A DNA stretch of 64,000 bases from Rickettsiales bacterium (GTDB taxonomy: Bacteria > Pseudomonadota > Alphaproteobacteria > Rs-D84). Of this stretch, positions 3,003-44,036 are shown piece by piece. Each line of letters starts with the position of its first letter. The stretch's first letter is position 1. Below the pieces are notes generated by a model that saw only the letters and a program-made list of their open reading frames with translations, was not told where the DNA came from and did not search any database. The stretch is from the NCBI GenBank assembly GCA_031265235.1, contig JAISCX010000029.1:19137-83136 (forward strand), written 5' to 3'. Position numbers and translations under genes: made by a program.

Positions 3003-4049
3003 TTATTCAAAATAGTTCAGATTCATCGCGCGCTTGACGCGGGCCAGCGTTTTCGCCGCCCTTGACCGCGCCCGCATTGTTCCGGCACGCAGTATTTCCA
3101 TAATGGCGCCGGGGTCGCGGGCCAGCGCTTCGCGCCGTTCGCGAATCGGCCGCAGCGTTTCCTGCATGACTTCGTTCAGGAATTTTTTCACCCGGACATC
3201 GCCAAGGCCGCCCCGTTCATAATGCGCGGCCAATTCCGCATAATTCTTATATTCCGGCATAAACGCTGTGAAATGTTCCGGCTTTGCAAACACCGACAGA
3301 TAAACGAACACCGGATTATTTTCCGTATGCCCCGGATCTTCCATGCGCAAATGCAACGGGTCGGTAAACATCGTTTTTATTTTCGCCGCAATTTCATCCG
3401 CGCTGTCTTTCAGATAAATCCCGTTACCAAGCGATTTTCCCATCTTTGCATTGCCATCGATCCCCGGCAGACGCGCCGCGGTTGCGCTTTCAGGCAGCAC
3501 CGCGCGCGGCATGATCAAAGTTTCACCATATATCGAATTAAATTTGCGCACTATTTCCTGGGTCTGTTCAATCATGGGCAGCTGGTCTTCGCCGACAGGC
3601 ACAATCGTCGCATCAAACGCGGTGATGTCCGCCGCCTGGGAAATAGGATACACAAAGAACCCGACCGGCACGCCGCCAGAAAATTTTTCTTTCTGCGCGA
3701 TTTCTGTCTTGACCGTCGGATTACGTTGCAAACGCGCAACAGTGACCAGGTTCATGTAATAGAAAGTCAGCTCTGCCAGCTCTGAAATTTCGGACTGGAT
3801 GAACAGGGTGGATTTTTCCGGATCAAGCCCGACAGACAAATAATCCAGCGCGACTTGCAGAATATTTTCGCGCACTTTTTCCGGGCTGTCGGCATTATCG
3901 GTAAGCGCCTGGGCATCCGCGACCATTATAAAAGGCTCATATTTACCCGTATTTTGCAATTCCACGCGCCGGTATAACGAACCGACATAGTGCCCGATAT
4001 GCAGCGGGCCAGTCGGTCTATCGCCCGTTAATATTATTTCTTTTTTCAT
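3003..4049 (-). CDS. trpS: tryptophan--tRNA ligase
   Basis: Class I aaRS HIGH-type motif ([12 protein letters not shown]) and KMGKS (KMSKS variant). 348 aa is typical of TrpS. Confidence 0.8.
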
Positions 4050-4089
4050 TTCTTCGCCTTTTGGTTAAGTCTTATACATTTAATCATTT

Positions 4090-4128
4090 TTTTCAATAAT
4101 AAAAAAGGGGCGCGTTAAACGCGCCCCG
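4090..4128 (-). terminator. rho-independent terminator downstream of gap
   Basis: GC hairpin GGGGCGCG-TTAAA-CGCGCCCC followed on the minus strand by a T-run. Confidence 0.7.
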
Positions 4129-4144
4129 CCGCCTTTCTGAAAGA

Positions 4145-5158
4145 TTATATCAATCTTCCAATCTCTGCGGCTGTCGCGCACATGCGGTTCGAAAAACCCC
4201 ATTCGTTATCATACCAAGACGTGACATGCAAAAGCTTGCCATCGACAACCTTGGTCAGGGTCGCGTCAAATATGCTTGAACGCGGATCATTCATAAAGTC
4301 CACGGACACCAGCGGCAGTTCGTTGTATCCCAATACGCCGGCTAGTTTCCCGTCCGCGGCTTTTTTCATGGCCGCGTTGACTTCCGCTTCTGTCACGGCT
4401 TTTTCAAGATTGACGACCAGTTCCACGACGGACACATCAGGCGTCGGAACACGGATCGCGACACCGTTCAATTTTCCTTCCAATTTTGGCAGGACTAATC
4501 CGATCGCCTTGGCCGCGCCCGTACTGGTCGGAATCATGGACACCGCAGCTGCGCGCGCGCGGCGCGGATCCTTGTGATTCTTGTCCAGCAGCTGCTGGTC
4601 GCCGGTATATGCGTGCACGGTTGTCATCCATCCGTCTTTGATTCCGAATGCTTCATCCAGAACCGCGGCCACAGGCGCAAGACAGTTCGTGGTGCACGAA
4701 CCGTTTGATACAATTTTCATGTCTTTGGTCAGAACATCATGGTTCACGCCGTAAACGATTGTGGCATCGGCGCCGTTGCTGGGCGCGGAAACCAATACCC
4801 TCTTCGCGCCCGCGTCAAGATGGACTTTTGCCTTGTCCGCGTCGGTGAATATTCCGGTGCATTCCATAACTATATCGATATCCAGTTCGCGCCAAGGCAG
4901 ATTCGTCGGATCCCTTTCAGAAACCACGGTGATATTATGCCCGCCGACCTTTATAACATTTCCATCAACATCAATCGGCATGTTCAATTTGCCATGGACG
5001 GAATCATATTCCAAAAGATACGCGTTTTGTTCCAGCGGCGCGATGTCGTTGATGGCGACAAATTCCAAATCGTCGCGTTTTGATTCCAGCGCCGCGCGCA
5101 GAATAAGCCTTCCGATGCGTCCGAACCCACTGATTGCAATTCTTGTTTTTTTACTCAT
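4145..5158 (-). CDS. gap: glyceraldehyde-3-phosphate dehydrogenase
   Basis: MSKKTRIAISGFGRIGR NAD-binding N-terminus and ASCTTNCLAP active-site motif. The true start is the ATG at 5158 (337 aa). The longer ORF to 5455 is an upstream in-frame extension with no homology. Confidence 0.9.
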   Translation of the reverse strand: MSKKTRIAISGFGRIGRLILRAALESKRDDLEFVAINDIAPLEQNAYLLEYDSVHGKLNMPIDVDGNVIKVGGHNITVVSERDPTNLPWRELDIDIVMECTGIFTDADKAKVHLDAGAKRVLVSAPSNGADATIVYGVNHDVLTKDMKIVSNGSCTTNCLAPVAAVLDEAFGIKDGWMTTVHAYTGDQQLLDKNHKDPRRARAAAVSMIPTSTGAAKAIGLVLPKLEGKLNGVAIRVPTPDVSVVELVVNLEKAVTEAEVNAAMKKAADGKLAGVLGYNELPLVSVDFMNDPRSSIFDATLTKVVDGKLLHVTSWYDNEWGFSNRMCATAAEIGRLI

Positions 5159-17369: not shown

Positions 17370-20162
17370 ATGAGAAAAATTCTTATCTTTTTATCTGCCA
17401 TGTCGATTTCCGCGCATTGTCTGGCCGCGGCGCAAAATCCGCGCGCCACGACCGCCCAGCCGCGCGCGGCCGCGACCGTGGCGACAACTGCGCGCAATGC
17501 CACGGAACGCCCGGCGACAGCGGCCGTTTCCGCACGAAGCGCGGCCGTTGCCACACGCGCCGCGGCAACGGCGGCGCCAACCAACGCCAGATCTGCGAAA
17601 AACAATGCGACCGCACCCCGCGCGGCAACAAACAGCGCCGTGCGTACCGCACCTCACGCTGCACGCGAAGTTGTCGGAACCAACATCGCGGCGCGCGCGG
17701 CGTTGGTTCCGACAACTTCGACAATGGGCGACGGGTATAACGCATGCCGCGATGTTTACTTTACATGCATGGATCAATTCTGCGCGGCCAAAGACGACGT
17801 GTACCGCCGCTGCATGTGTTCCGGACGCTTGGATGAAATCCGCGAAAAAGAACGAAAGCTGAAACAATCCGCCGGACTTTTGCAAGACTTTGCGGAATAC
17901 AATATCGATGCGATTACCAAAACCGCCCAGGAAGTCGCGGCAATGCTGAAAGCAACGCCGGGCGAATACGCCGCGGCGACCGGGCAAAAATACGACAAAT
18001 CCGACGCCACGAAAAATCTTGCCGGAATTTCAAGCGTTTTGAATAATGCGAAATCTCAGTCCCTGTCCACCAAAGGCACCCTTGACATCGCCGGAAACAT
18101 CAATGCGATCTGGTCTTCTTCGGACTTGATAGGCAGCGGCGATATCGCGAATCTAGAAGGCAGGAAACTTTACGAACAGGTTCACGCCCAATGCGCGTCC
18201 ATATCGGCTGACGCATGCCCGCGCACCCCAACAATGAACATGGTCGTCAGCGCATACGGCATGTATATAGAACAGGACTGCAACGTAATATCCGCCGCAC
18301 TGGAAGGGAAAAGAATCCAAACCGCGGGCGACGTCCGCAAGACAGAACGCGTGATGAGCGAGGCGCGCCTGGAAAATTACAACGTCCACAATTCCGCGGC
18401 AGTCAACGAATGCATCGCCCAGGTTCGCAAAGATATCACCGAAGATCCCGCGTGCGGCCCGGAATTCGTCCATTGTCTGGATGTCACCGGCATGTATTTG
18501 GTATATGCCACGGGGGAACCGATTTACAGCCCCAGCTTTTTCAATCTTGAAAATCAAATTTCGCTGACCGGCGATACTCTAAGCAATTCGGCAAACAGGC
18601 TTTTCGTGTCGCTGTTGGAAAAGAACAAGGAATTCGCAAAGCGCGGGCTGGACACTTGCCGCGACATATCGGCGGACGTATGGGATGAATTCATGCGCCA
18701 GGCTTTGGTCGAAATATACCAGGGCCAGCAAAACCGAATCCGTGCGGTCAAAGATGAATGCATATCCGTCGTTAACGAATGCTATGACGCGCAGACGCAA
18801 AAGTTAAAGGACTTTTCAAACATGGACCGCCAATCCTTGCTGGGCCAAACTATCGAAACAGCCGAAGCGATGTGCAAGACAAAGCTTGACGCGTGTTCCA
18901 ATCTTTACGGCGGCGCAAGCGGATTGAAAGAACTGACGGATTTTGTGTTCAACGTAGGCAGCTTGAAAGTATCCGAATCTTGCGAGAAATATCTGGACCA
19001 ATACATTCGCAACATCTGCACTTTAAAGTCTGACACATTGCACGGATTCCCGTATGACTGCCGCATTCGCAAGCCGGGTTCGTATGTCTGCGAACAGTCC
19101 GGCGCATCATCGGATGATTGCAGCAAGGATTCCGTATACGCCCAGCTGGCGAAATACGCGCGTGAAAACTGTGTCCGGCCCAGTGTCCAGCCAGAAGATC
19201 CGCTGCCGTCCGTCGTCCAAACCGCGGTCAACCGCATTATGGATACCACGAAACGCGAAATGGAAAAATTGCTGCGCGCGGAATGCAAAAACGTATCCGG
19301 CGATTGGACGAATGATTTGGATAAACGTCCCAAAGACGATTCCACTGAAATTTTATCCGTATCGTTCGCGCTTGATGTTAATGCGGACCATGACTGGGGC
19401 ATATGTTTGGCGAACAGCTGCGACCTGGCCAATTCCGGCGAGAGATATACGGATGAATACGGCATACAGCAATGCTGTGCAAATACGGATTCGTATGACC
19501 CTGCTTCAAAGACATGCGTCGAAAAAGATGTAGCCATTTGCATCAGTTACGGCGACCATATCATAGTGGACACCAGTTGTTCGACACAGGGGAGACACGG
19601 CGACGACCATGGATGCGTGGTAAAAGATTGCAGATGCGATGATGGTTATCAGCTAGACGTTCCGGAAGAACCAAATACACCAGTGTCTTGCATACTGCGG
19701 CAATGTCCATCCGGATCGGACGATGCCACAGATTGCCCGGCCCCCAATGGTGCCAACGGGGAACTGGCCGGATGCGTGAAAAAAGATTGCAAATGCCAAA
19801 GCGATCACATAATAGATATTACCAACGGTGTGCGGGCATGCAAGAAAGTGGAGTGTGGAAGCGCATCATCATTTGATGCAACTTGCACGGAAGCGAATGG
19901 GGGAGATGAATACCTGCTCGGGGGCTGTTTCAAACAGTTTTGCAGATGCGACACAGATGCATATAAACAAAATAATTATAATACATGTCGCGCCACAGAT
20001 TGCCCCGACCACTCTCATGCCGAACAAGCTTGTTTGTCTAGCCCCGGAACAACAACTAATTGTCTTACTGACAAAAATGGTTGTAAATGCGATGATGGAT
20101 ACTCGGTAATGCTCCCTGATGGAGACTATGGATATCGCATGGTATGCCAATCTGATGTTTAA
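17370..20162 (+). CDS. secreted cysteine-rich protein, paralog family member P3 (930 aa), with N-terminal Ala/Thr/Arg-rich low-complexity region and C-terminal Cys-rich tandem modules
   Basis: Signal peptide MRKILIFLSAMSISAHCLAAA, then about 100 aa of A/T/R-rich low complexity. Family motifs are NACRDVYFTCMDQFC...CMCSG, ACGPEFVHC and CKTKLDAC. The C-terminal 250 aa carry repeated CxC...DGYQLD / GCVKKDCKC / GCKCDDGY modules. Confidence 0.8.
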   Translation: MRKILIFLSAMSISAHCLAAAQNPRATTAQPRAAATVATTARNATERPATAAVSARSAAVATRAAATAAPTNARSAKNNATAPRAATNSAVRTAPHAAREVVGTNIAARAALVPTTSTMGDGYNACRDVYFTCMDQFCAAKDDVYRRCMCSGRLDEIREKERKLKQSAGLLQDFAEYNIDAITKTAQEVAAMLKATPGEYAAATGQKYDKSDATKNLAGISSVLNNAKSQSLSTKGTLDIAGNINAIWSSSDLIGSGDIANLEGRKLYEQVHAQCASISADACPRTPTMNMVVSAYGMYIEQDCNVISAALEGKRIQTAGDVRKTERVMSEARLENYNVHNSAAVNECIAQVRKDITEDPACGPEFVHCLDVTGMYLVYATGEPIYSPSFFNLENQISLTGDTLSNSANRLFVSLLEKNKEFAKRGLDTCRDISADVWDEFMRQALVEIYQGQQNRIRAVKDECISVVNECYDAQTQKLKDFSNMDRQSLLGQTIETAEAMCKTKLDACSNLYGGASGLKELTDFVFNVGSLKVSESCEKYLDQYIRNICTLKSDTLHGFPYDCRIRKPGSYVCEQSGASSDDCSKDSVYAQLAKYARENCVRPSVQPEDPLPSVVQTAVNRIMDTTKREMEKLLRAECKNVSGDWTNDLDKRPKDDSTEILSVSFALDVNADHDWGICLANSCDLANSGERYTDEYGIQQCCANTDSYDPASKTCVEKDVAICISYGDHIIVDTSCSTQGRHGDDHGCVVKDCRCDDGYQLDVPEEPNTPVSCILRQCPSGSDDATDCPAPNGANGELAGCVKKDCKCQSDHIIDITNGVRACKKVECGSASSFDATCTEANGGDEYLLGGCFKQFCRCDTDAYKQNNYNTCRATDCPDHSHAEQACLSSPGTTTNCLTDKNGCKCDDGYSVMLPDGDYGYRMVCQSDV

Positions 20163-20243: not shown

Positions 20244-20981
20244 ATGCTAAAAACCAAACTGTTTGCTTTTTACTTTTCGTTTTTTGTTTTCTGTTCCGCA
20301 GCCCAAGCGGCAACGCCCTGGTGGCTGCAGCCTACTATTTGCCAGCTCAGCCCGACGAAATGCTATCCGTCTATGGGCGCGGGATTCGACGCCGGCATGT
20401 GGGACGCGAATGCAAACTGTTGGGGAATGAAAATAATTTGTCCGGATGCCTTTTCAACCGGCTCGCATAACGACCCGGCACCTGTTTCCAAAACGACTCT
20501 CATGGCCGGCACCGGAATAAAGGTGGATTTTGACACGGATTTGTTCTTTGCGGGTGACGGATGCTATGGCGCGCGGCGGACAGCCGGGGGCGGCGCATAC
20601 GCGCTTGTAAACGGGACCCAGGCAAAGATTTATTGTGCCGGCGTATTGCAGAATCCGACGGAAACATTGACGAATGGAGAAATCACCACAGGCCCCCAGC
20701 CAACGTGCGCACAGCTTGCCGCGGACGGGTGGGTCGCCGTGCAGAATGGAAATTGCTTTGGCAAACAGTATTCCGCGAATGATTATTTCATAGAATGCGG
20801 AAACGACGCGTCCGATCTGCCGAACAGAATTGTCGCGATCCGCGGCGCCAGCAGCTTTGTGACGGGCGGCGCCGGCAATTCCGGCGGCAGCACGCCGTCA
20901 ACGCAATCAGCGGCGAATTCATTGTTTGACCTGATGATCCAGGCATCCGCCGCGCGCAAATCAACGCAATTTAATCAATAA
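20244..20981 (+). CDS. hypothetical secreted protein
   Basis: Signal peptide MLKTKLFAFYFSFFVFCSAAQAA. 245 aa with Cys, Gly and aromatic residues and no known motif. Confidence 0.5.
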   Translation: MLKTKLFAFYFSFFVFCSAAQAATPWWLQPTICQLSPTKCYPSMGAGFDAGMWDANANCWGMKIICPDAFSTGSHNDPAPVSKTTLMAGTGIKVDFDTDLFFAGDGCYGARRTAGGGAYALVNGTQAKIYCAGVLQNPTETLTNGEITTGPQPTCAQLAADGWVAVQNGNCFGKQYSANDYFIECGNDASDLPNRIVAIRGASSFVTGGAGNSGGSTPSTQSAANSLFDLMIQASAARKSTQFNQ

Positions 20982-21012
20982 CCAGTGGGTTCTGCGATTT
21001 TTACACATACCG

Positions 21013-22037
21013 ATTGCCAAAAAATCGGTAATTATACGACTAGCTACGCAAGAAGTCAAAATGCCAAATCCTAATGTATAAAATCTGCTGCTGAAATTTG
21101 CGTCTAAATTTAAAGAATAACGGATTTCGGCGCCTTTAAGGTTGTAACTAAAAATCCTGTAATGTAAATGCTTGCCCTGTAATGTTGGCAAAAAACCTTC
21201 TGTCACCGCGACTTTACCACTTTGGCAATAGCAAAAAACTTATTAATGCCGGGCCATTCTTCATCAGGCTCTTTATATTTCTTCATAACTGTAAAGCCGG
21301 CATCTTGTAATAAACCTTCAATTTCCTTTTGCGATACTACATTCAAGTCAGTTAGCAACTTTGGATCAAAAGTCTCGGGGAATGATATTTCGCCGGAAAC
21401 ACCTTCCGCCATGCCAAGAAAGAGAAAGCCGTCTTTGTTTATGATTTTGTGAATATCCATAAGACACTTTGGAACTTTGTTCTTTGAAATGCAGCAAAGT
21501 GAGTTTCTTGCAACAGCACAATCGAAAGAATTCTGCGGGAAATCCAATTTCTCAATATCTTGTTTAATAAAATTGGCATTGGAATTTTTTGCTTTCGCAA
21601 GTTTCAACATCTCGTCGGACAAATCAACACCCGTAACATCATGACCAAGATTTGACAGATAAACAGCATTATTGCCAGGTCCGCAACCTATGTCTATAAT
21701 TCGCGACTTTGGTTTTATATGCTTCGCAAATTCATCAATGTGTTCGGAGGTCCCTATGGCCCCGTCATAAGCTTTTGCTATCGAATTATATAGTGAAATA
21801 ATTCTTTTTCTGTTCATAAGCTTGAGGCTATCACATAATTTATGATTTGCAAGTTGTGTGAAAAACAGCAGATTTTTAGCTGACATTACTGTTTTCGCAT
21901 TACATTACGGTTTAATTATTTACAATCTTGAAATATGCAGAAGTCCGCTGTTTTTATAAAAAAACCACGAATTACCGGCGACTAGATGTCGATTTTAGAT
22001 GTTTGCGTAGCTATCCGTATAATTGCCAAAAAATCCC
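21013..22037. mobile_element. about 1-kb inverted-repeat-flanked single-gene cassette (methyltransferase cargo) adjacent to tRNA-Arg; putative mobile or foreign insertion
   Basis: Outer inverted 22-mers TAATTATACGACTAGCTACGCAA (21029-21051) and TTGCGTAGCTATCCGTATAATT (22003-22024), plus ATTGCCAAAAAATC direct repeats. Inner inverted repeats with GTAATGT motifs at 21156-21189 and 21882-21910 tightly bracket the CDS. Cargo GC is well below the local average. Confidence 0.4.
21203..21886 (-). CDS. class I SAM-dependent methyltransferase
   Basis: Motif I IIDIGCGPGNNAVYL and motif II DCAVARNSL. 227 aa, AT-rich codon usage. Confidence 0.75.
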   Translation of the reverse strand: MSAKNLLFFTQLANHKLCDSLKLMNRKRIISLYNSIAKAYDGAIGTSEHIDEFAKHIKPKSRIIDIGCGPGNNAVYLSNLGHDVTGVDLSDEMLKLAKAKNSNANFIKQDIEKLDFPQNSFDCAVARNSLCCISKNKVPKCLMDIHKIINKDGFLFLGMAEGVSGEISFPETFDPKLLTDLNVVSQKEIEGLLQDAGFTVMKKYKEPDEEWPGINKFFAIAKVVKSR

Positions 22038-22077
22038 TTGATTTTTGTCGGGAATGATATAAAATGCCCCCTGGCAA

Positions 22078-22154
22078 GCGCCCATAGCTTAACTGGATAA
22101 AGCATCTGACTACGGATCAGAAGACTGAGGGTTCGAATCCTTCTGGGCGCGCCA
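22078..22154 (+). tRNA. tRNA-Arg (anticodon ACG)
   Basis: Cloverleaf: acceptor GCGCCCA/TGGGCGC, D-arm GCTT/AAGC, anticodon stem TCTGA/TCAGA with loop CTACGGA, T-arm GAGGGTTCGAATCCTTC, 3' CCA encoded. Confidence 0.9.
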
Positions 22155-22403
22155 AAAATTGTTGTCACGCATATGTTTTTCACAAATTCATTCGCAATAT
22201 TTAACATTGCTTTCCTTTCATATATCCTTTGAAATATTTATGGTTCAAAAAGCGGCGAAAATATGATAGAATTCTCATCAGAGAATACAATAATGAATTT
22301 CAGATCGCTTTTTTCCGCCCAGGTTCCCAGTGCGTTTGTTTTCAGCACGCACGGTTTTTGCACCATGGCCAATAACGTTAAAATTGCTGGATCCCGCGGA
22401 AAC

Positions 22404-22456
<53 letters not shown>

Positions 22457-22554
22457 TCATCTTGTCCGATAACCGGCGCAAGTAAATTTTTCAGCAAATT
22501 CATAACACCCGATACGGCAAAGGCTGTATCGAGTGTTTTAATTGTGATAAAGAA

Positions 22555-22965
22555 ATGAATACAGGCAAACTGTTCACAGCAATATTCGGCGCCATGGTCT
22601 TGGCCGCGGCCGGCAACGCGCATGCCGCGCCCCAGATCAAATACAATTATAACGGAACCAATTATTCGGCCGAGACGGACGCGAACAAGGTAAAATCAAT
22701 ATCCGGCGGCGGCACGGGAATCACCGCGGCCGCAACGGACGACCAGTATCCCAGCGCCAAGGCGGTAAAGGACACTTTGGACGGCGCGGAACAAGTCGGC
22801 AACCGCGCGACCGATGTCGGCGATTCCACAACCACGACGACATATCCGACAACCGGCGCCGTGCGAAGCGCACTGAACGCGCAATTTGTTCAAAAATCAA
22901 ACGAAGCCGAGGCCGCCGCATATTCCGCCGCCCATCCAAATGTCTTGGTTTACATACCAGAGTAA
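22555..22965 (+). CDS. small secreted protein (136 aa)
   Basis: Signal peptide MNTGKLFTAIFGAMVLAAAGNAHA. Repeated YPSAKAVKDTLDG / YPTTGAVRSALN motifs. Confidence 0.5.
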   Translation: MNTGKLFTAIFGAMVLAAAGNAHAAPQIKYNYNGTNYSAETDANKVKSISGGGTGITAAATDDQYPSAKAVKDTLDGAEQVGNRATDVGDSTTTTTYPTTGAVRSALNAQFVQKSNEAEAAAYSAAHPNVLVYIPE

Positions 22966-25500: not shown

Positions 25501-25527
25501 AATCCGCCGTCCGGCGGATTTTTTTAA
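25499..25527. terminator. bidirectional rho-independent terminator (secG and ankyrin operon)
   Basis: AAAATCCGCCGTCCGGCGGATTTTTTT, identical to the module at 16917. Confidence 0.7.
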
Positions 25528-26489
25528 CAGCCTAATTCTTTCATTATATCAGCCCTGACTTGATTCGCTTTTGCTTGCGCGCAAACGCTCCGCCCCCAGC
25601 TGTCCTTGTCATCCAATCTCGCGCCTTTCTCTTTTAATTTTACCACAGCATCCTTGCATTCGTAATATGCCGCCTCTCTTATAGCAGAAAATCCATAAGT
25701 TCCTTTGCTATTCACATCAGCGCCATTATCTATCAAGAAATTTATGAAATCCATATTACAATGCCGGGCTGCAATAAAAAGCGCGGTCCCCCTGGCAGAA
25801 TCTTGATAATCTATTATATCAGGGTGTTCTGTTATCAAATTTTTTGCTTCTTCAAACTGCTTTGCAAACACTGCATCAATCATTTGTTCCGATACAGGTT
25901 TTTCTTCTTTTGGGGTATTTGATGATATTACTTGCTCAACATTTGCTGTATTTTGTTCACATGCAAACATCTGACGAATTTGTCCGCTTCCGTCCGCCAA
26001 AGTGCAATGCATGATTTTCGTAAAACCATTTTCTCTGGTTACTATTTCGCTACGATCATTGGTGCAAGTTATATTCGGTGTAAATTTGGGGCCCAATTCT
26101 CGATTTACATATTCTTCACTTAAAAATTCGCATGCTTTTGCGCCTTCGTCTATCAAATTCTGTGCGATCACATTTTCATCTGATTCATTTTGATTTTCCT
26201 GATCACCGCCGGAACCAAGCAGACCGTCCGCCCCAGGAATAGCCCCGCCCAATGTGCTCAATAAATTATTATCGGTGACGGCGCCGGTAACTTGTTCAAT
26301 AATACCGCCAGCGTTCTTAGCCGCGCAAACGCCTTTGCTTTCATCATATTTTTTTTCCTTTAATTCGCACACAGCTTCTGTATGTTTTTTCAAAATTTTA
26401 TCCGCTTCCTCTATATCAACCGCAGCCGCATGCGCGACGCTGGAAAGCGCAAAGGTAAAAATAATAAAAGAAGCAATCTTTTTAAACAT
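25524..26489 (-). CDS. secreted ankyrin-repeat protein
   Basis: Start taken at MFKKIASFIIFTFALSSVAHA (signal peptide). The C-terminal half has 3-4 ankyrin repeats (GTALFIAARHCNMDFINFLIDNGADVNSKGTYGFSAI...). TGATG stop/start overlap with the upstream gene. Confidence 0.7.
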   Translation of the reverse strand: MFKKIASFIIFTFALSSVAHAAAVDIEEADKILKKHTEAVCELKEKKYDESKGVCAAKNAGGIIEQVTGAVTDNNLLSTLGGAIPGADGLLGSGGDQENQNESDENVIAQNLIDEGAKACEFLSEEYVNRELGPKFTPNITCTNDRSEIVTRENGFTKIMHCTLADGSGQIRQMFACEQNTANVEQVISSNTPKEEKPVSEQMIDAVFAKQFEEAKNLITEHPDIIDYQDSARGTALFIAARHCNMDFINFLIDNGADVNSKGTYGFSAIREAAYYECKDAVVKLKEKGARLDDKDSWGRSVCAQAKANQVRADIMKELGC

Positions 26490-27610
26490 CACTTGTATTC
26501 TTTCAGGGATTGATTCAACTGGACGCATTCTGTTCTTTTGACATAATCGCCCGTGCATTCCGCATTATATACATTCTGGGCATTTTTATATGTCGTCTTG
26601 AATTTCTCTTGGGTTACATTTTCTTGCTTTTTCCCGCCGTATTTTTCTATATCGCCCTGGCCCAGTTTCGGGAAAATCTCGTTCACCGCAAGATTTCCAA
26701 CAAGACCGACACCTATACCAACAAGCGCAGTTGTCGCACCAGTCTTCATCTTTGACGCTGCTTCGCCAGAATCCAGGCGTTCTTGCGCTGTATCAAACCG
26801 GTTCGCTGTCTTGCCGCCTGCCCCGTTTTCTCCATAATCATACAATGATGATTTATCCACAATTAATTCCGACTCTATCCCCGCAGGCATCCCAAGGTTT
26901 TCTTTCGCAGAGCGGGTCTTGTCCGCAATTCTTATATATTCCGACTTTAATTCAACCGCCCGCGCAGGATTCGAAAATCCCGGCGCTGCGCCTGTTTCTC
27001 CACGTCTGATCTTGCCGCCACGGCCGGATATTTCACAGGTTATTGTGGACAGATATGCTGCGATGTCCGCCGCTGAGTCTTCGTCTGCTTTCTTTTCTGC
27101 TGCGCCTTGGAAATAGTTCATGCCGCCGATGCCCGCCGCACCGATCGCCGCGGCCCCGATCAGCTTGTTCGCAGTCGATTGTTCACGTGCCTTTGCCTCT
27201 GCCGCTTTTTGTTTTAGATCATCCGCCCTTGTCTGATCGAAATATTTTTCATTTTCTTTTTCCACATCCGCGCCAGTTTGCGGCGGGACAGCATCATCTG
27301 GTTTTGTTTCGTCCGGTTTTTTGTTATTTGGATCTGATTCTTCACTTTCTTCACCAGAAGTCACGCCATTCTTTGCATCTTTGATCTTGTCGGACGCAGT
27401 CACTATGGATTGATCCCTCTTATCAATGGCTGCTTTTATGGTGTCGTTATCCAGATATTTAGAATATTGTTCAATCAGCTTATTAACAGTATCTTCATAT
27501 TCTTTATTGGCTTTTGCCAGGGCGGCATCCTGGGCGGAAAAATCCACCCCTTCCCCGAAAGCAAATCCGGGAACACACAGTGCGAAAAAAATCAAAATAC
27601 ATTTTTTCAT
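26489..27610 (-). CDS. secreted hypothetical protein with C-terminal glycine-zipper segment and Cys pair
   Basis: Signal peptide MKKCILIFFALCVPGFAFG. Acidic/Lys-rich middle region. C-terminal TALVGIGVGLVGNLAV hydrophobic Gly-zipper followed by NAECTGDYVKRTEC. Confidence 0.6.
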   Translation of the reverse strand: MKKCILIFFALCVPGFAFGEGVDFSAQDAALAKANKEYEDTVNKLIEQYSKYLDNDTIKAAIDKRDQSIVTASDKIKDAKNGVTSGEESEESDPNNKKPDETKPDDAVPPQTGADVEKENEKYFDQTRADDLKQKAAEAKAREQSTANKLIGAAAIGAAGIGGMNYFQGAAEKKADEDSAADIAAYLSTITCEISGRGGKIRRGETGAAPGFSNPARAVELKSEYIRIADKTRSAKENLGMPAGIESELIVDKSSLYDYGENGAGGKTANRFDTAQERLDSGEAASKMKTGATTALVGIGVGLVGNLAVNEIFPKLGQGDIEKYGGKKQENVTQEKFKTTYKNAQNVYNAECTGDYVKRTECVQLNQSLKEYK

Positions 27611-42403: not shown

Positions 42404-42723
42404 TACCTCGTTTTTAGTGCCAAAATGTCCCATTATGACCTATGATACGCTGTGATGTGCTACTTTGACACAACTACCACTCAGACAGATTTAAAGAAAA
42501 ATAATCCAAAATGATGCCAAACAAGGCATTAGAAAAAGACATATGCGAGACATAGGATTTGGACATATCCCGGACATTTTGGAATACTGTGAAAGACATA
42601 ATGGTTGATTTTTATACAGATTTATGATATAATGGCTCTAACAAAGGCGGAATTCTATTCCGCTGTTTTTATCCGACCCTGCATTCGTGCAGGGCCTTTT
42701 TTATAAAACAAAAAGGAATAATT

Positions 42724-43350
42724 ATGGAACCTACTTATGTATCAGCATTCAAGGGTATTGGCAATAACGCGATGTATGTTGGAAGCGATGGGAATATTTA
42801 TGAACATAGCGGCGGAACAATTGCGTGGCGTAATAATAATCCGGGGAATATGCGGGCGTATAAATCTGTATTTAATCGTGGCGCAATCGGAACCGGCGGT
42901 GGCGCAACCGAAAAAGCGCCGGGGTTCGCAATATTTCCCGATGCAAACACTGGTTGGAACGCGATGGTTGATTTGTTGTCAGAGCCTATGTATCAAAATC
43001 TTACTATTGAAGAAGCCATCAATAAATATTCCCCGCCAGAAGAAAACAATGTGGAAAATTATCTGAAATCTTTGGAAAATCAAACCGGGTTTCCGCGCAT
43101 TACGCCAATGAATAATCTGTCAAAAGATAATTTGTTAAAACTTGCCAAAGCTATGAAAGCGCACGAAGGGAATAAACCGGGCAAAAAGCGGCTTGTTCCA
43201 AAAAATGAAAAATATATGTGGGTTACTGAAGGCGACGACAAAGTTCGTCCAGAACACGAAGCACTGGACGGCGAAGTGCGGTCATGGTATGATAGTCCGC
43301 ATCCGGGCGAAGATTTTGGATGCAGATGTCATGCTGAAGCAGTTGATTAG
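42724..43350 (+). CDS. phage-derived protein with C-terminal Mu F / SPP1 gp7-type motif
   Basis: The C-terminus RPEHEALDGEVRSWYDSPHPGEDFGCRCHAE matches the conserved R-x-x-H-x-x-L-D-G ... P-x-H-P-x-C-R-C block of phage head-morphogenesis (Mu F-like) domains. The N-terminal 150 aa (WRNNNPGNMR, GFAIFPDANTGWNAM) are unassigned. Confidence 0.5.
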   Translation: MEPTYVSAFKGIGNNAMYVGSDGNIYEHSGGTIAWRNNNPGNMRAYKSVFNRGAIGTGGGATEKAPGFAIFPDANTGWNAMVDLLSEPMYQNLTIEEAINKYSPPEENNVENYLKSLENQTGFPRITPMNNLSKDNLLKLAKAMKAHEGNKPGKKRLVPKNEKYMWVTEGDDKVRPEHEALDGEVRSWYDSPHPGEDFGCRCHAEAVD

Positions 43351-43861
43351 ATATTTTTTAATTTTTCTATTTTGTGCCGCTTGCGCGGGCCGACCAACAT
43401 ATGTTGACTATGATAAGATGGATTATGGTTTGCCCAAAACACCAGATAAAGAAGAAATTTTTAATGTTGAAACGGAAAATTTAGATGTTTATGGAGTATC
43501 CAATATAGATACTTTTTATATTGATATAAGTGACGATGGAAAAAAAGATAAAATAATTAGGGGGTATTTTGCAAACATAAGCGCCCACGGATATACTTTC
43601 TATGAAATATACTTGAACAACGGGGAACAGGTTGCAAGATTCCGAACCCTTGAAGGCGCGGATTGTTTTTTAGAGGCTTATAAATTTCAATTTGAGCCAT
43701 TTATATTGACCAAAGCCTCGCGGTCATGGAAAGATACATGGGCAACGCCAACTCCGGCAAAAATTGAGAAATACAAAATCACAAATAATAAATTGGAGAA
43801 AATATCCGAAAAATCTGGTGGAATAATTTGCGATGTTAGGGAATTATTGCAAGAAAGATGA
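43331..43861 (+). CDS. putative lipoprotein (176 aa)
   Basis: Start taken at MLKQLIRYFLIFLFCAAC (lipobox-like LFCAAC). Overlaps the end of the preceding gene by 20 nt. No motif. Confidence 0.4.
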   Translation: MLKQLIRYFLIFLFCAACAGRPTYVDYDKMDYGLPKTPDKEEIFNVETENLDVYGVSNIDTFYIDISDDGKKDKIIRGYFANISAHGYTFYEIYLNNGEQVARFRTLEGADCFLEAYKFQFEPFILTKASRSWKDTWATPTPAKIEKYKITNNKLEKISEKSGGIICDVRELLQER

Positions 43862-43991
43862 ATTTGTAGAAATATGCGTCATTTTTTCTACAAATATGTA
43901 TGTATTTTTGTAGGAAACGGTGCGCGGACATAAAGTAAAAGACAGGCTATTTTAGAGAGATATAGTGCCACAAGCTCTGCGACATATAATA

Positions 43992-44036
43992 GACATAAAA
44001 TCTAAAAATTAAAATTAAAAGCCCGCACAAGCCTAG
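43992..44036 (-). terminator. terminator downstream of ccrM
   Basis: CCCGCA-(loop)-TGCGGG hairpin with an A/T-rich run on the minus strand. Confidence 0.5.

Follow-up and report, generated by a model that had tools for sequence, protein, structure and literature searches.

The methyltransferase gene and its flanking arms

The sequence analysed here (the window) is a stretch of 64,000 nucleotides from contig JAISCX010000029.1 of a metagenome-assembled Rickettsiales bacterium from termite gut (NCBI proteins MDR1207410.1 and MDR1207411.1). Its gene content is that of an ordinary chromosome, with genes for FtsH, a TrpRS/TyrRS-class synthetase, GAPDH, MiaA, PriA, CorA, topoisomerase IV/gyrase A, MsbA, a CcrM-like methylase, PGK, an FtsY/SRP54-type GTPase, ClpP and ClpX. 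The subject of this work is a segment of 1001 bp (21027-22027, hereafter the cassette) found between a gene coding for a protein of 245 amino acids (aa) (20244-20981) and an intact tRNA-Arg gene. The only gene inside the cassette codes for a class I S-adenosylmethionine (SAM)-dependent methyltransferase. The initial annotation of the region described a low-GC methyltransferase gene bracketed by two nested pairs of inverted repeats, and all the sequence features that it quoted were found in place. They are listed, together with those identified here, in Table 1. One other assembly covers the region: the Logan assembly L001 (run SRR14710921), possibly obtained from the same sample, is 100% identical to the window over its 3,808 bases.

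The longest open reading frame (ORF) of the cassette spans positions 21203-21886 of the reverse strand (684 bp with its stop codon, 227 aa). All homologues and the NCBI gene model (204 aa) begin at Met24 of this ORF, and the coding sequence (CDS) is therefore probably the shorter one given in Table 1. The unique centre of the cassette, 21204-21864, holds exactly the 204-aa CDS and 47 nt with a promoter-like site from which the methyltransferase is probably expressed, as judged from the match to the consensus. Given the Met24 start, the inner repeat, first described as overlapping the start codon, lies just upstream of this promoter-like site instead. The gene has a GC content of 38.2%, and of 36.6% at third codon positions (GC3), compared to 49.1±4.4% and 55.0±7.6% (mean±standard deviation) for the 47 genes of the window. 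With a z score of about −2.5 it is the second lowest of the 47, in agreement with the AT-rich codon usage claimed originally. The arms that flank it (see below) have 35-36% GC and the whole cassette 37%. A few other low-GC genes are found in the window (at 25.5, 42.7 and 43.2 kb), so that low GC alone is not unique to the cassette.

The protein matches the Pfam families Methyltransf_25, Methyltransf_11 and Methyltransf_23 (E-values from ~1e-22 to 7e-22). Its SAM-binding GxGxG motif (DIGCGPG) is conserved in an alignment of 40 sequences, in which all positions invariant in the family are also present; judged from its sequence, the protein is intact. The AlphaFold2 (AF2) model is a Rossmann-fold SAM methyltransferase (predicted local distance difference test score, pLDDT, 95.5; predicted template modelling score, pTM, 0.92) whose Foldseek neighbours are methyltransferases at E ~1e-15. 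The best structural neighbours, which come from structural genomics or are small-molecule methyltransferases, are 3sm3, 3e23, MitM, a toxoflavin N-methyltransferase, NmbA and Htm (15-24% identity), with template modelling scores (TM-scores) of 0.7-0.84 for 3sm3, 3e23, MitM, the toxoflavin N-methyltransferase and Htm. The structure-based prediction of substrate class proposed at the outset thus returned a modelled fold that is the one of small-molecule methyltransferases, with neighbours at only 15-24% identity. Among the NCBIfam equivalogs, TehB, UbiE, BioC and DVU_1556 all scored below their curated cut-offs, the best value being 65.9 bits versus a cut-off of 155 (DVU_1556) and the others lying far below theirs. 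Searches of PHROGs, PADLOC and PDB sequences gave generic SAM-domain matches only, which for PHROGs and PADLOC cover just the SAM-binding half. The missing catalytic motifs and Pfam domains speak against a DNA methyltransferase or restriction-modification orphan: the sequence has no PPY or PPF of the (D/N/S)PP(Y/F) motif and no C5-methyltransferase motif, and matches neither N6_N4_Mtase nor DNA_methylase. Some sources name distant homologues “DNA methyltransferase”; the cassette protein has no such domain.

Close homologues are few: a search of 5.8 billion protein clusters gave three (P0002-P0004, 53-58% identity), the next ones having ~31% identity. These three sit in alphaproteobacterial-type contexts, in genomes of ~40% GC where the gene itself has ~33.5% GC. 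The loci of P0002 and P0004 are unrelated contexts without these inverted repeats and without a tRNA, and the homologue loci L002, L003 and L004 were rejected as further copies of the element on the same grounds. In L002 and L003 the methyltransferase homologue is bracketed by 27-nt direct repeats that match at 25/27 positions.

The reverse complement of the left flank of the gene aligns with its right flank as a single collinear, diverged inverted repeat (21027-21203 versus 21865-22027). The arms, of ~178 nt and 163 nt, are 63% identical with gaps. Their outer 25 nt (21027-21051 versus 22003-22027) match at 22/25 positions and the outer 36 nt at 78%, while an inner block of 97 nt that contains the paired GTAATGT boxes is 70% identical. 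The tips, at 21027 and 22027, read GGTAATTATACG... and GGCAATTATACG..., respectively. The two nested pairs of inverted repeats recognized initially are both real, but they are best described as the better-conserved ends of this one repeat. The Smith-Waterman score of the arms is 36, a value reached by 0 of 2000 dinucleotide shuffles (10.6±1.5); alignment in direct orientation scores 14, and control flanks of other window genes score at most 14. With three mismatches allowed, the outer 22-mers (21030-21051, reverse strand; 22003-22024, forward strand) are the only two matches in the window (0.01 expected), and the paired GTAATGT motif is seen just twice (21159-21185, forward; 21883-21908, reverse; 0 expected). 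As these motifs occur nowhere else in the 64 kb, the repeats are not general terminator or operator palindromes of the genome, the commonplace explanation against which the initial annotation had weighed its own proposal.

Each terminal inverted repeat (TIR) also carries a promoter-like site that faces outward (Table 1), the left one being directed antisense towards the 3′ end of the adjacent 245-aa gene. The arms could accordingly be read as functional cis-elements, namely operator or looping sites, partners in pairing between 5′ and 3′ untranslated regions, or duplicated outward promoters, selected around a gene that was acquired in another way. In each arm, the tip and the GTAATGT block are indeed more alike than the stretch that separates them, the right inner block lies just upstream of the methyltransferase −35 region, the promoters within the tips are near consensus, and one of the chance matches to the tip core in GTDB genomes (see below) is a TTGACT-17-TATAAT promoter in a Lentilactobacillus. 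However, the motifs lack any other occurrence in the window, an Rfam scan of 20.9-22.6 kb identified the tRNA only and no family matching the arms, an mRNA started at the internal promoter would not include the right arm, and the left outward promoter faces no gene. Selection on such sites would also leave the direct repeat that abuts the tips unexplained, and we regard it as an unlikely origin of the arms.

This direct repeat, AAAAAATC, is perfect over 8 bp and lies immediately outside both tips (Table 1). A match of 8 nt at these fixed positions has a chance probability of ~3e-5 at the local base composition. The identity becomes 14 nt (ATTGCCAAAAAATC, 21013-21026 and 22022-22035) if the six bases ATTGCC at the end of the right tip are counted: the same hexamer directly precedes the left direct repeat. 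Furthermore, a perfect 8-bp hairpin (TACCGATT-GCCAAAA-AATCGGTA, 21008-21030) straddles the flank, the direct repeat and the first 4 nt of the left tip. This junction symmetry, which exceeds an 8-bp duplication, may reflect a target preference for end-like sequences or a former terminator.

Table 1. Sequence features of the cassette and its immediate surroundings (window coordinates; a dot marks features without strand).
Feature	Position	Strand	Basis or remark
Left direct repeat AAAAAATC, putative target-site duplication	21019-21026	.	Abuts left tip (21027)
Left terminal inverted repeat (IRL), GGTAATTATACGACTAGCTACGCAA...	21027-21062	+	First 25 nt match right tip at 22/25
Whole left arm	21027-21203	.	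Arm alignments; ends at methyltransferase stop codon
Outward σ70-like promoter in IRL, TTGACT-17-TATAAT (11/12)	21031-21059	-	Consensus match only
Left-arm inner conserved block, two CCTGTAATGT boxes 20 nt apart	21156-21185	+	Repeat and motif counts
Probable CDS of the class I SAM-dependent methyltransferase (204 aa)	21203-21817	-	Pfam, homologue starts, AF2 model, Foldseek
Methyltransferase promoter-like site, TTCACA-16-AATTAT (9/12)	21835-21862	-	Consensus match only; between right arm and Met24
Whole right arm	21865-22027	.	Arm alignments
Right-arm inner conserved block, two GTAATGT boxes 19 nt apart	21883-21913	-	Repeat and motif counts
Right terminal inverted repeat (IRR), inward from tip GGCAATTATACGGATAGCTACGCAA...	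21992-22027	-	Inverted-repeat match
Outward σ70-like promoter in IRR, TTTAGA-18-TATAAT (10/12), towards tRNA-Arg	21994-22023	+	Consensus match only
Right direct repeat AAAAAATC, also first bases of the conserved tRNA module (A-tract upstream of −35)	22028-22035	.	Repeat and homology with relatives
Native tRNA-Arg promoter, TTGATT-16-TAAAAT	22038-22065	+	Kept in relatives; resembles tRNA-Pro promoter of the window
tRNA-Arg (anticodon ACG), intact; neighbour of the cassette, not part of it	22078-22154	+	Rfam
Predicted empty-site sequence, ...CCGATTGCCAAAAAATCCCTTGATTTTTG...			
Cassette end sequence as query for the source genome or reads, GGYAATTATACGNNTAGCTACGCAA			

Orthologous loci and the tRNA-Arg gene

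Orthologs of the upstream 245-aa gene were found in termite-gut-type metagenomes. At three of these loci (L006, L007 and L008, with a 53% identical ortholog) the gene is followed by a terminator hairpin, the TTGATT-N16-TAAAAT promoter and tRNA-Arg in forward orientation; the spacer between gene and tRNA has 120 nt and holds neither cassette nor methyltransferase. Homology with the window covers positions 22029-22154 in L006, where it is collinear, and 22028-22159 in L005, where it is inverted, beginning in both exactly at the right tip of the cassette (22028/22029). Neither arm matches any of the relatives' loci, and the possibility that the arms are ancestral sequence from upstream of the tRNA was rejected because the homology to L005 and L006 stops at that point. 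L005 is the closest relative (82% ortholog) and its tRNA-Arg module, 94% identical to window positions 22028-22159, is inverted, while L043, L010 and L044 lack the tRNA after their ortholog of the 245-aa gene. The junction between gene and tRNA is fluid in this clade, and the comparison of these sequences is supportive of an insertion at this site, not decisive.

Such fluidity invites an explanation by local rearrangement. A foreign methyltransferase fragment would have entered the spacer by illegitimate recombination, the arms would be an inverted duplication of local sequence produced by template switching or palindrome formation, and the direct repeat would be a by-product of repair. The rearranged tRNA module in L005 and its absence beside the ortholog at three other loci show a rearrangement-prone locus, the long similarity of the arms is atypical of insertion sequence (IS) ends, and no second copy of the ends was found in the collections searched, all of which can be counted in favour of this scenario. 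Nevertheless, neither arm is homologous to the spacer sequence of the relatives, the arms carry the low GC of the passenger gene and not that of the host, and the concentration of similarity at tips abutted by a perfect 8-bp repeat is a specific signature of transposition. Since the direct repeat is identical at 14/14 positions while the arms are 63-70% identical, the arms were presumably already imperfect when the cassette landed. This disfavours a single local inverted duplication, from which a 14/14 direct repeat beside arms of 63% identity would be hard to obtain. We consider a local rearrangement rather unlikely.

The initial annotation emphasized that tRNA-Arg is a classic integration target and suggested a search for a duplicated 3′ fragment of the tRNA as attachment (att) site. 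The 3′ end of the tRNA gene is not where the cassette sits; it lies 5′ of the native tRNA promoter. No duplicate of the tRNA-Arg 3′ end is present in the window; the sole near match to its terminal 16 nt, found at a distance of 12 kb and with two mismatches, is of the kind expected by chance. The window ORFs of at least 150 aa, 47 in total, were compared with Pfam (46 ORFs) or NCBIfam (PriA), and no transposase, integrase or recombinase was found among them. The att/integrase part of the proposal fails because the insertion lies 5′ of the tRNA promoter, and tRNA-Arg is a bystander. In L005, a 16-nt copy of the tRNA 3′ end (TGGCGCGCCCAGAAGG, 2306-2321) is found 170 nt from the intact tRNA (2491-2567). 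This att-like scar suggests that integrase-type events occur at tRNA-Arg in the clade, and it is the observation that speaks for a decayed tRNA-targeting island, in which an integrase would have inserted an element at tRNA-Arg(ACG) that then lost most of its content except the methyltransferase gene. In the window, the position of the cassette relative to the tRNA promoter, the 3′-end match at chance level, the lack of an integrase gene and the inverted, not direct, orientation of the repeats all contradict such an island, which is already largely refuted and has hardly any credibility left.

Phase-variable methyltransferases are known in other bacteria, and inverted repeats that bracket a whole gene recall the invertible segments flipped by site-specific recombinases. 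Inversion of the cassette by a recombinase acting in trans, as a phase switch, is nonetheless very improbable. Flipping would not switch the gene because the promoter-like site lies inside the segment, the repeats have diverged (22/25 at best), no recombinase was identified among the ORFs examined, and the flanking direct repeat would have no explanation. In L001, possibly the same sample as noted above, the segment has the same orientation.

Proposed insertion of the cassette and related sequence elements

We propose, at somewhat better than an even chance judging from the sequence, that segment 21027-22027 is a transposase-less mobile insertion cassette (MIC) inserted by a DDE transposase acting in trans. 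MICs are defined by inverted repeats and by the lack of a transposase gene, usually with a duplication of the target; in the prototype, MIC231, it is the IS231A transposase that provides mobility in trans (PMC3913671). The segment found here has two TIRs, no transposase, an unrelated passenger gene and an abutting target duplication, the latter with the ambiguity that the identity is of 14 nt if it overlaps the right tip. Of the mobilised cassette or integrative element put forward initially, the first half is retained, with the TIRs, the abutting 8-bp repeat, the foreign passenger, the lack of a transposase and the absence from relatives on its side, while the half that invoked a tRNA and an integrase is abandoned.

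The events could have been as follows. A non-autonomous, IS-derived cassette, consisting of two imperfect TIRs and a passenger gene with its own promoter but no transposase, would have come from a donor of lower GC. A DDE transposase encoded elsewhere would have recognized its GG-tipped ends and cut the A-tract AAAAAATC, which lies shortly upstream of the tRNA-Arg promoter, with a stagger of 8 bp. The cassette would have been inserted there, with the terminator region of the 245-aa gene on one side and the tRNA module on the other, and repair of the staggered cut would have left the 8 bp in two copies. Once in place, the right outward promoter-like site could add read-through transcription into tRNA-Arg and the left one could yield RNA antisense to the neighbouring gene. 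It is from this footprint that we infer the transposition event, as well as the transposase family and the present activity or inactivity of the cassette.

Several observations weigh against this interpretation. The inverted similarity continues ~170 nt beyond the tips, which is unusual for IS ends and closer to miniature inverted-repeat transposable elements (MITEs) or fold-back elements. The left boundary is uncertain by ~6 nt because of the 14-nt reading of the direct repeat and of the 8-bp hairpin at the left junction. Since the closest relative, L005, is rearranged, the cleanest empty site comes from a distant one (53% ortholog), whose spacer is otherwise unalignable to the window, and the homology boundary at 22028 could be the mere edge of a conserved tRNA promoter module. 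The suggested search of the inverted repeats for other copies was also negative. In the window, a scan with three mismatches and a word-7 blastn found the tip core in the two arms only. Scans of 185,579 GTDB species genomes (a set without the source genome), JGI metagenomes and IMG/VR, which required the exact 17-base tip core, gave no copy with matching flanks, and BLAST of the whole cassette against plasmids and phages gave no match. No cognate transposase was identified in the window or in the collections searched. As neither a second copy nor a cognate transposase was found, mobility is a property that we only infer.

The collection scans did return stretches with the 17-base core, 31 in GTDB species genomes, 15 in JGI metagenomes and one in IMG/VR. 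Realigned with 150 nt of context, the GTDB and JGI stretches score at most 22 and none scores above the core itself, compared to 36 for the true arms; the IMG/VR match, read directly, shares the core only and has unrelated sequence around it. These matches are due to chance, as none aligns beyond the core. They include a Mucilaginibacter repeat protein. A multi-copy repeat of Caloramator that carries AGCGTAGCTAGACGTATAATTAC ~25 nt inside its boundary was likewise set aside as a chance match because it has no further similarity. AGCGTAGCTAGACGTATAATTAC matches the cassette tip core at 20/22 positions, and the repeat, which breaks many contigs ~100 nt from their ends, was seen in Caloramator, Caproiciproducens and Clostridiales (L012, L014-L016, L018-L019, L021-L027, L029, L034-L035, L037-L041). 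It is probably an unrelated repeat family that matches by chance.

Other features of the window and of the relatives' loci were recorded in the course of this work. The 245-aa gene forms a conserved pair with a 930-aa gene (17370-20162): both code for cysteine-rich ORFan proteins with a signal peptide and no Pfam match, and their homologues come from termite-gut-type Rickettsiales metagenomes. The pair follows an eIF-1a/InfA-like gene in L010 and L044, whereas L006 has the same three genes, but there InfA lies on the other strand and an IS separates the two ORFans. This IS (3904-4632, 729 bp) belongs to the IS1595 family, codes for a 219-aa DDE_Tnp_IS1595 protein, has 28-bp TIRs (3904-3931 and 4605-4632) and lies directly upstream of the 53% ortholog, inside a second, perfect pair of 19-nt inverted repeats (3894-3912 and 4936-4954). 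Its ends and the ends of the methyltransferase cassette are not related.

Downstream of tRNA-Arg, a (GA)n microsatellite of ~24 units (22407-22455) is found ~100 nt upstream of a gene for a 136-aa secreted protein (22555-22965), and a terminator-like hairpin (22510-22531) follows the tract just before the start codon of that gene. A role of the tract in phase variation by slipped-strand mispairing is possible; L001, which covers it, is identical over its length. The lowest GC3 of the window (35%) is that of a gene for an ankyrin-repeat protein (25524-26558), a probable further foreign or host-interaction gene.

A different type of repeat was found at the low-GC segment 42.6-44.0 kb, which contains a MuF-like gene and a 222-aa ORF. 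The segment is bracketed by arrays of GACAT boxes spaced by 11 nt (42524-42600 and 43925-43998; core AGAAAAAGACATAT.C.AGACATAG.A). Similar arrays are present in L002 (432-485 and 1219-1245, and the same in L003), where they flank the methyltransferase homologue as the 27-nt direct repeats (25/27) mentioned above; the window copy matches the L002 copy at 23/27 positions. GACAT-N6-GACAT has three matches in the window, all at these arrays (0.11 expected). The arrays could mark boundaries used in recombination or of att-like type, or they could be iterons bound by a protein. The idea that the boxes are a conserved regulator site of the MuF-like gene was discarded because they are absent upstream of its 78% ortholog in L063. 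The MuF/SPP1-gp7-like protein itself (~201-209 aa; 42724-43350) has relatives of 65-84% identity in dozens of alphaproteobacterial metagenome-assembled genomes, and at the three loci examined (the window, L063 and L065/L066) its gene is followed by an overlapping ORF of ~170-220 aa without family match (43193-43861 in the window). In spite of the low GC, this arrangement resembles a conserved module of two genes more than the remains of a prophage.

A broader reading that would link these elements is quite improbable in our judgement. The cassette would belong to a so far undescribed family of fold-back elements that carry cargo in termite-gut Rickettsiales, with arms of ~170 nt made of tips with outward promoters and subterminal GTAATGT boxes, and the same cargo would also be shuttled by a second, distinct boundary system of GACAT direct repeats (L002; 42.5-44.0 kb of the window). 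It would imply that non-autonomous elements of two kinds exchange cassettes as modules, and that the insertion rewires transcription of tRNA-Arg.

Comparison with known elements

If the MIC interpretation is correct, the cassette is a natural example of a single accessory gene moved into the reduced genome of a host-associated alphaproteobacterium, travelling without a transposase and landing in the A-tract of a tRNA promoter with the tRNA spared. It would represent a known kind of hitch-hiking element and no new mechanism, and would leave current understanding unchallenged; its value is for annotation and as a mobile-element lead. The end sequence GGYAATTATACG...AGCTACGCAA is a concrete query for seeking the cognate transposase in termite-gut Rickettsiales. 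The analysis also flags an orphan family of small-molecule-type methyltransferases, with four sequences found among the 5.8 billion protein clusters. The cassette protein shares the Rossmann fold and the intact GxGxG motif with the small-molecule class I SAM methyltransferases (TM-scores of 0.7-0.84) but differs from them by an identity of only 15-24%.

The cassette resembles the islands targeted to tRNA genes by tyrosine integrases, whose att site is the tRNA 3′ end, in that it adjoins a tRNA and has cargo of foreign composition. It differs by its position 5′ of the promoter, which is the wrong side of the tRNA, by inverted instead of direct repeats, and by the lack of an integrase and of a duplicated tRNA fragment. 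With MITEs and fold-back elements it has in common the TIRs, the target duplication, the lack of a transposase and the extensive inverted similarity of its two halves. MITEs, in contrast, are non-coding, usually shorter than ~600 bp and multi-copy, whereas the cassette has 1001 bp, an intact gene for a 204-aa protein and a single copy in the data searched.

The tips GGTAATTAT and GGCAATTAT fit the end consensus ggnnatTAT of the ISNwi1 group of the IS1595 family, a fit to be taken as a lead only. The ISNwi1 group includes members with passenger genes. Elements of the IS1595 family are generally bordered by 8-bp duplications, and the related Merlin elements have 5′-GG tips, TIRs of 24-462 bp and duplications of 8-9 bp, traits that the 8-bp duplication, GG tips and ~25-bp TIRs of the cassette resemble (PMC8101967). 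A different IS1595-family IS adjoins the ortholog in L006, as described above. By analogy, the ends of the cassette fit the IS1595/Merlin type. The combination of GG tips and an 8-bp duplication is not exclusive to IS1595, 8-bp duplications being also produced by IS1, IS6, ISL3, IS256 and IS66, and neither the cassette nor the window has a DDE_Tnp_IS1595 gene.

The MICs remain the best-matching systems. Trans-mobilisation by the cognate IS was demonstrated for MIC231, while the cassette described here is known from sequence alone. Its arms are alike over ~170 nt, not at the tips only, and its host is an uncultured Rickettsiales bacterium of the termite gut. It shares with MIC231 of Bacillus cereus and with the qnrD and qnrS2 “mic” elements the imperfect inverted repeats of ~24-25 bp, one or more passenger genes in place of a transposase, a duplicated target and a length of ~1-1.5 kb (PMC3913671).

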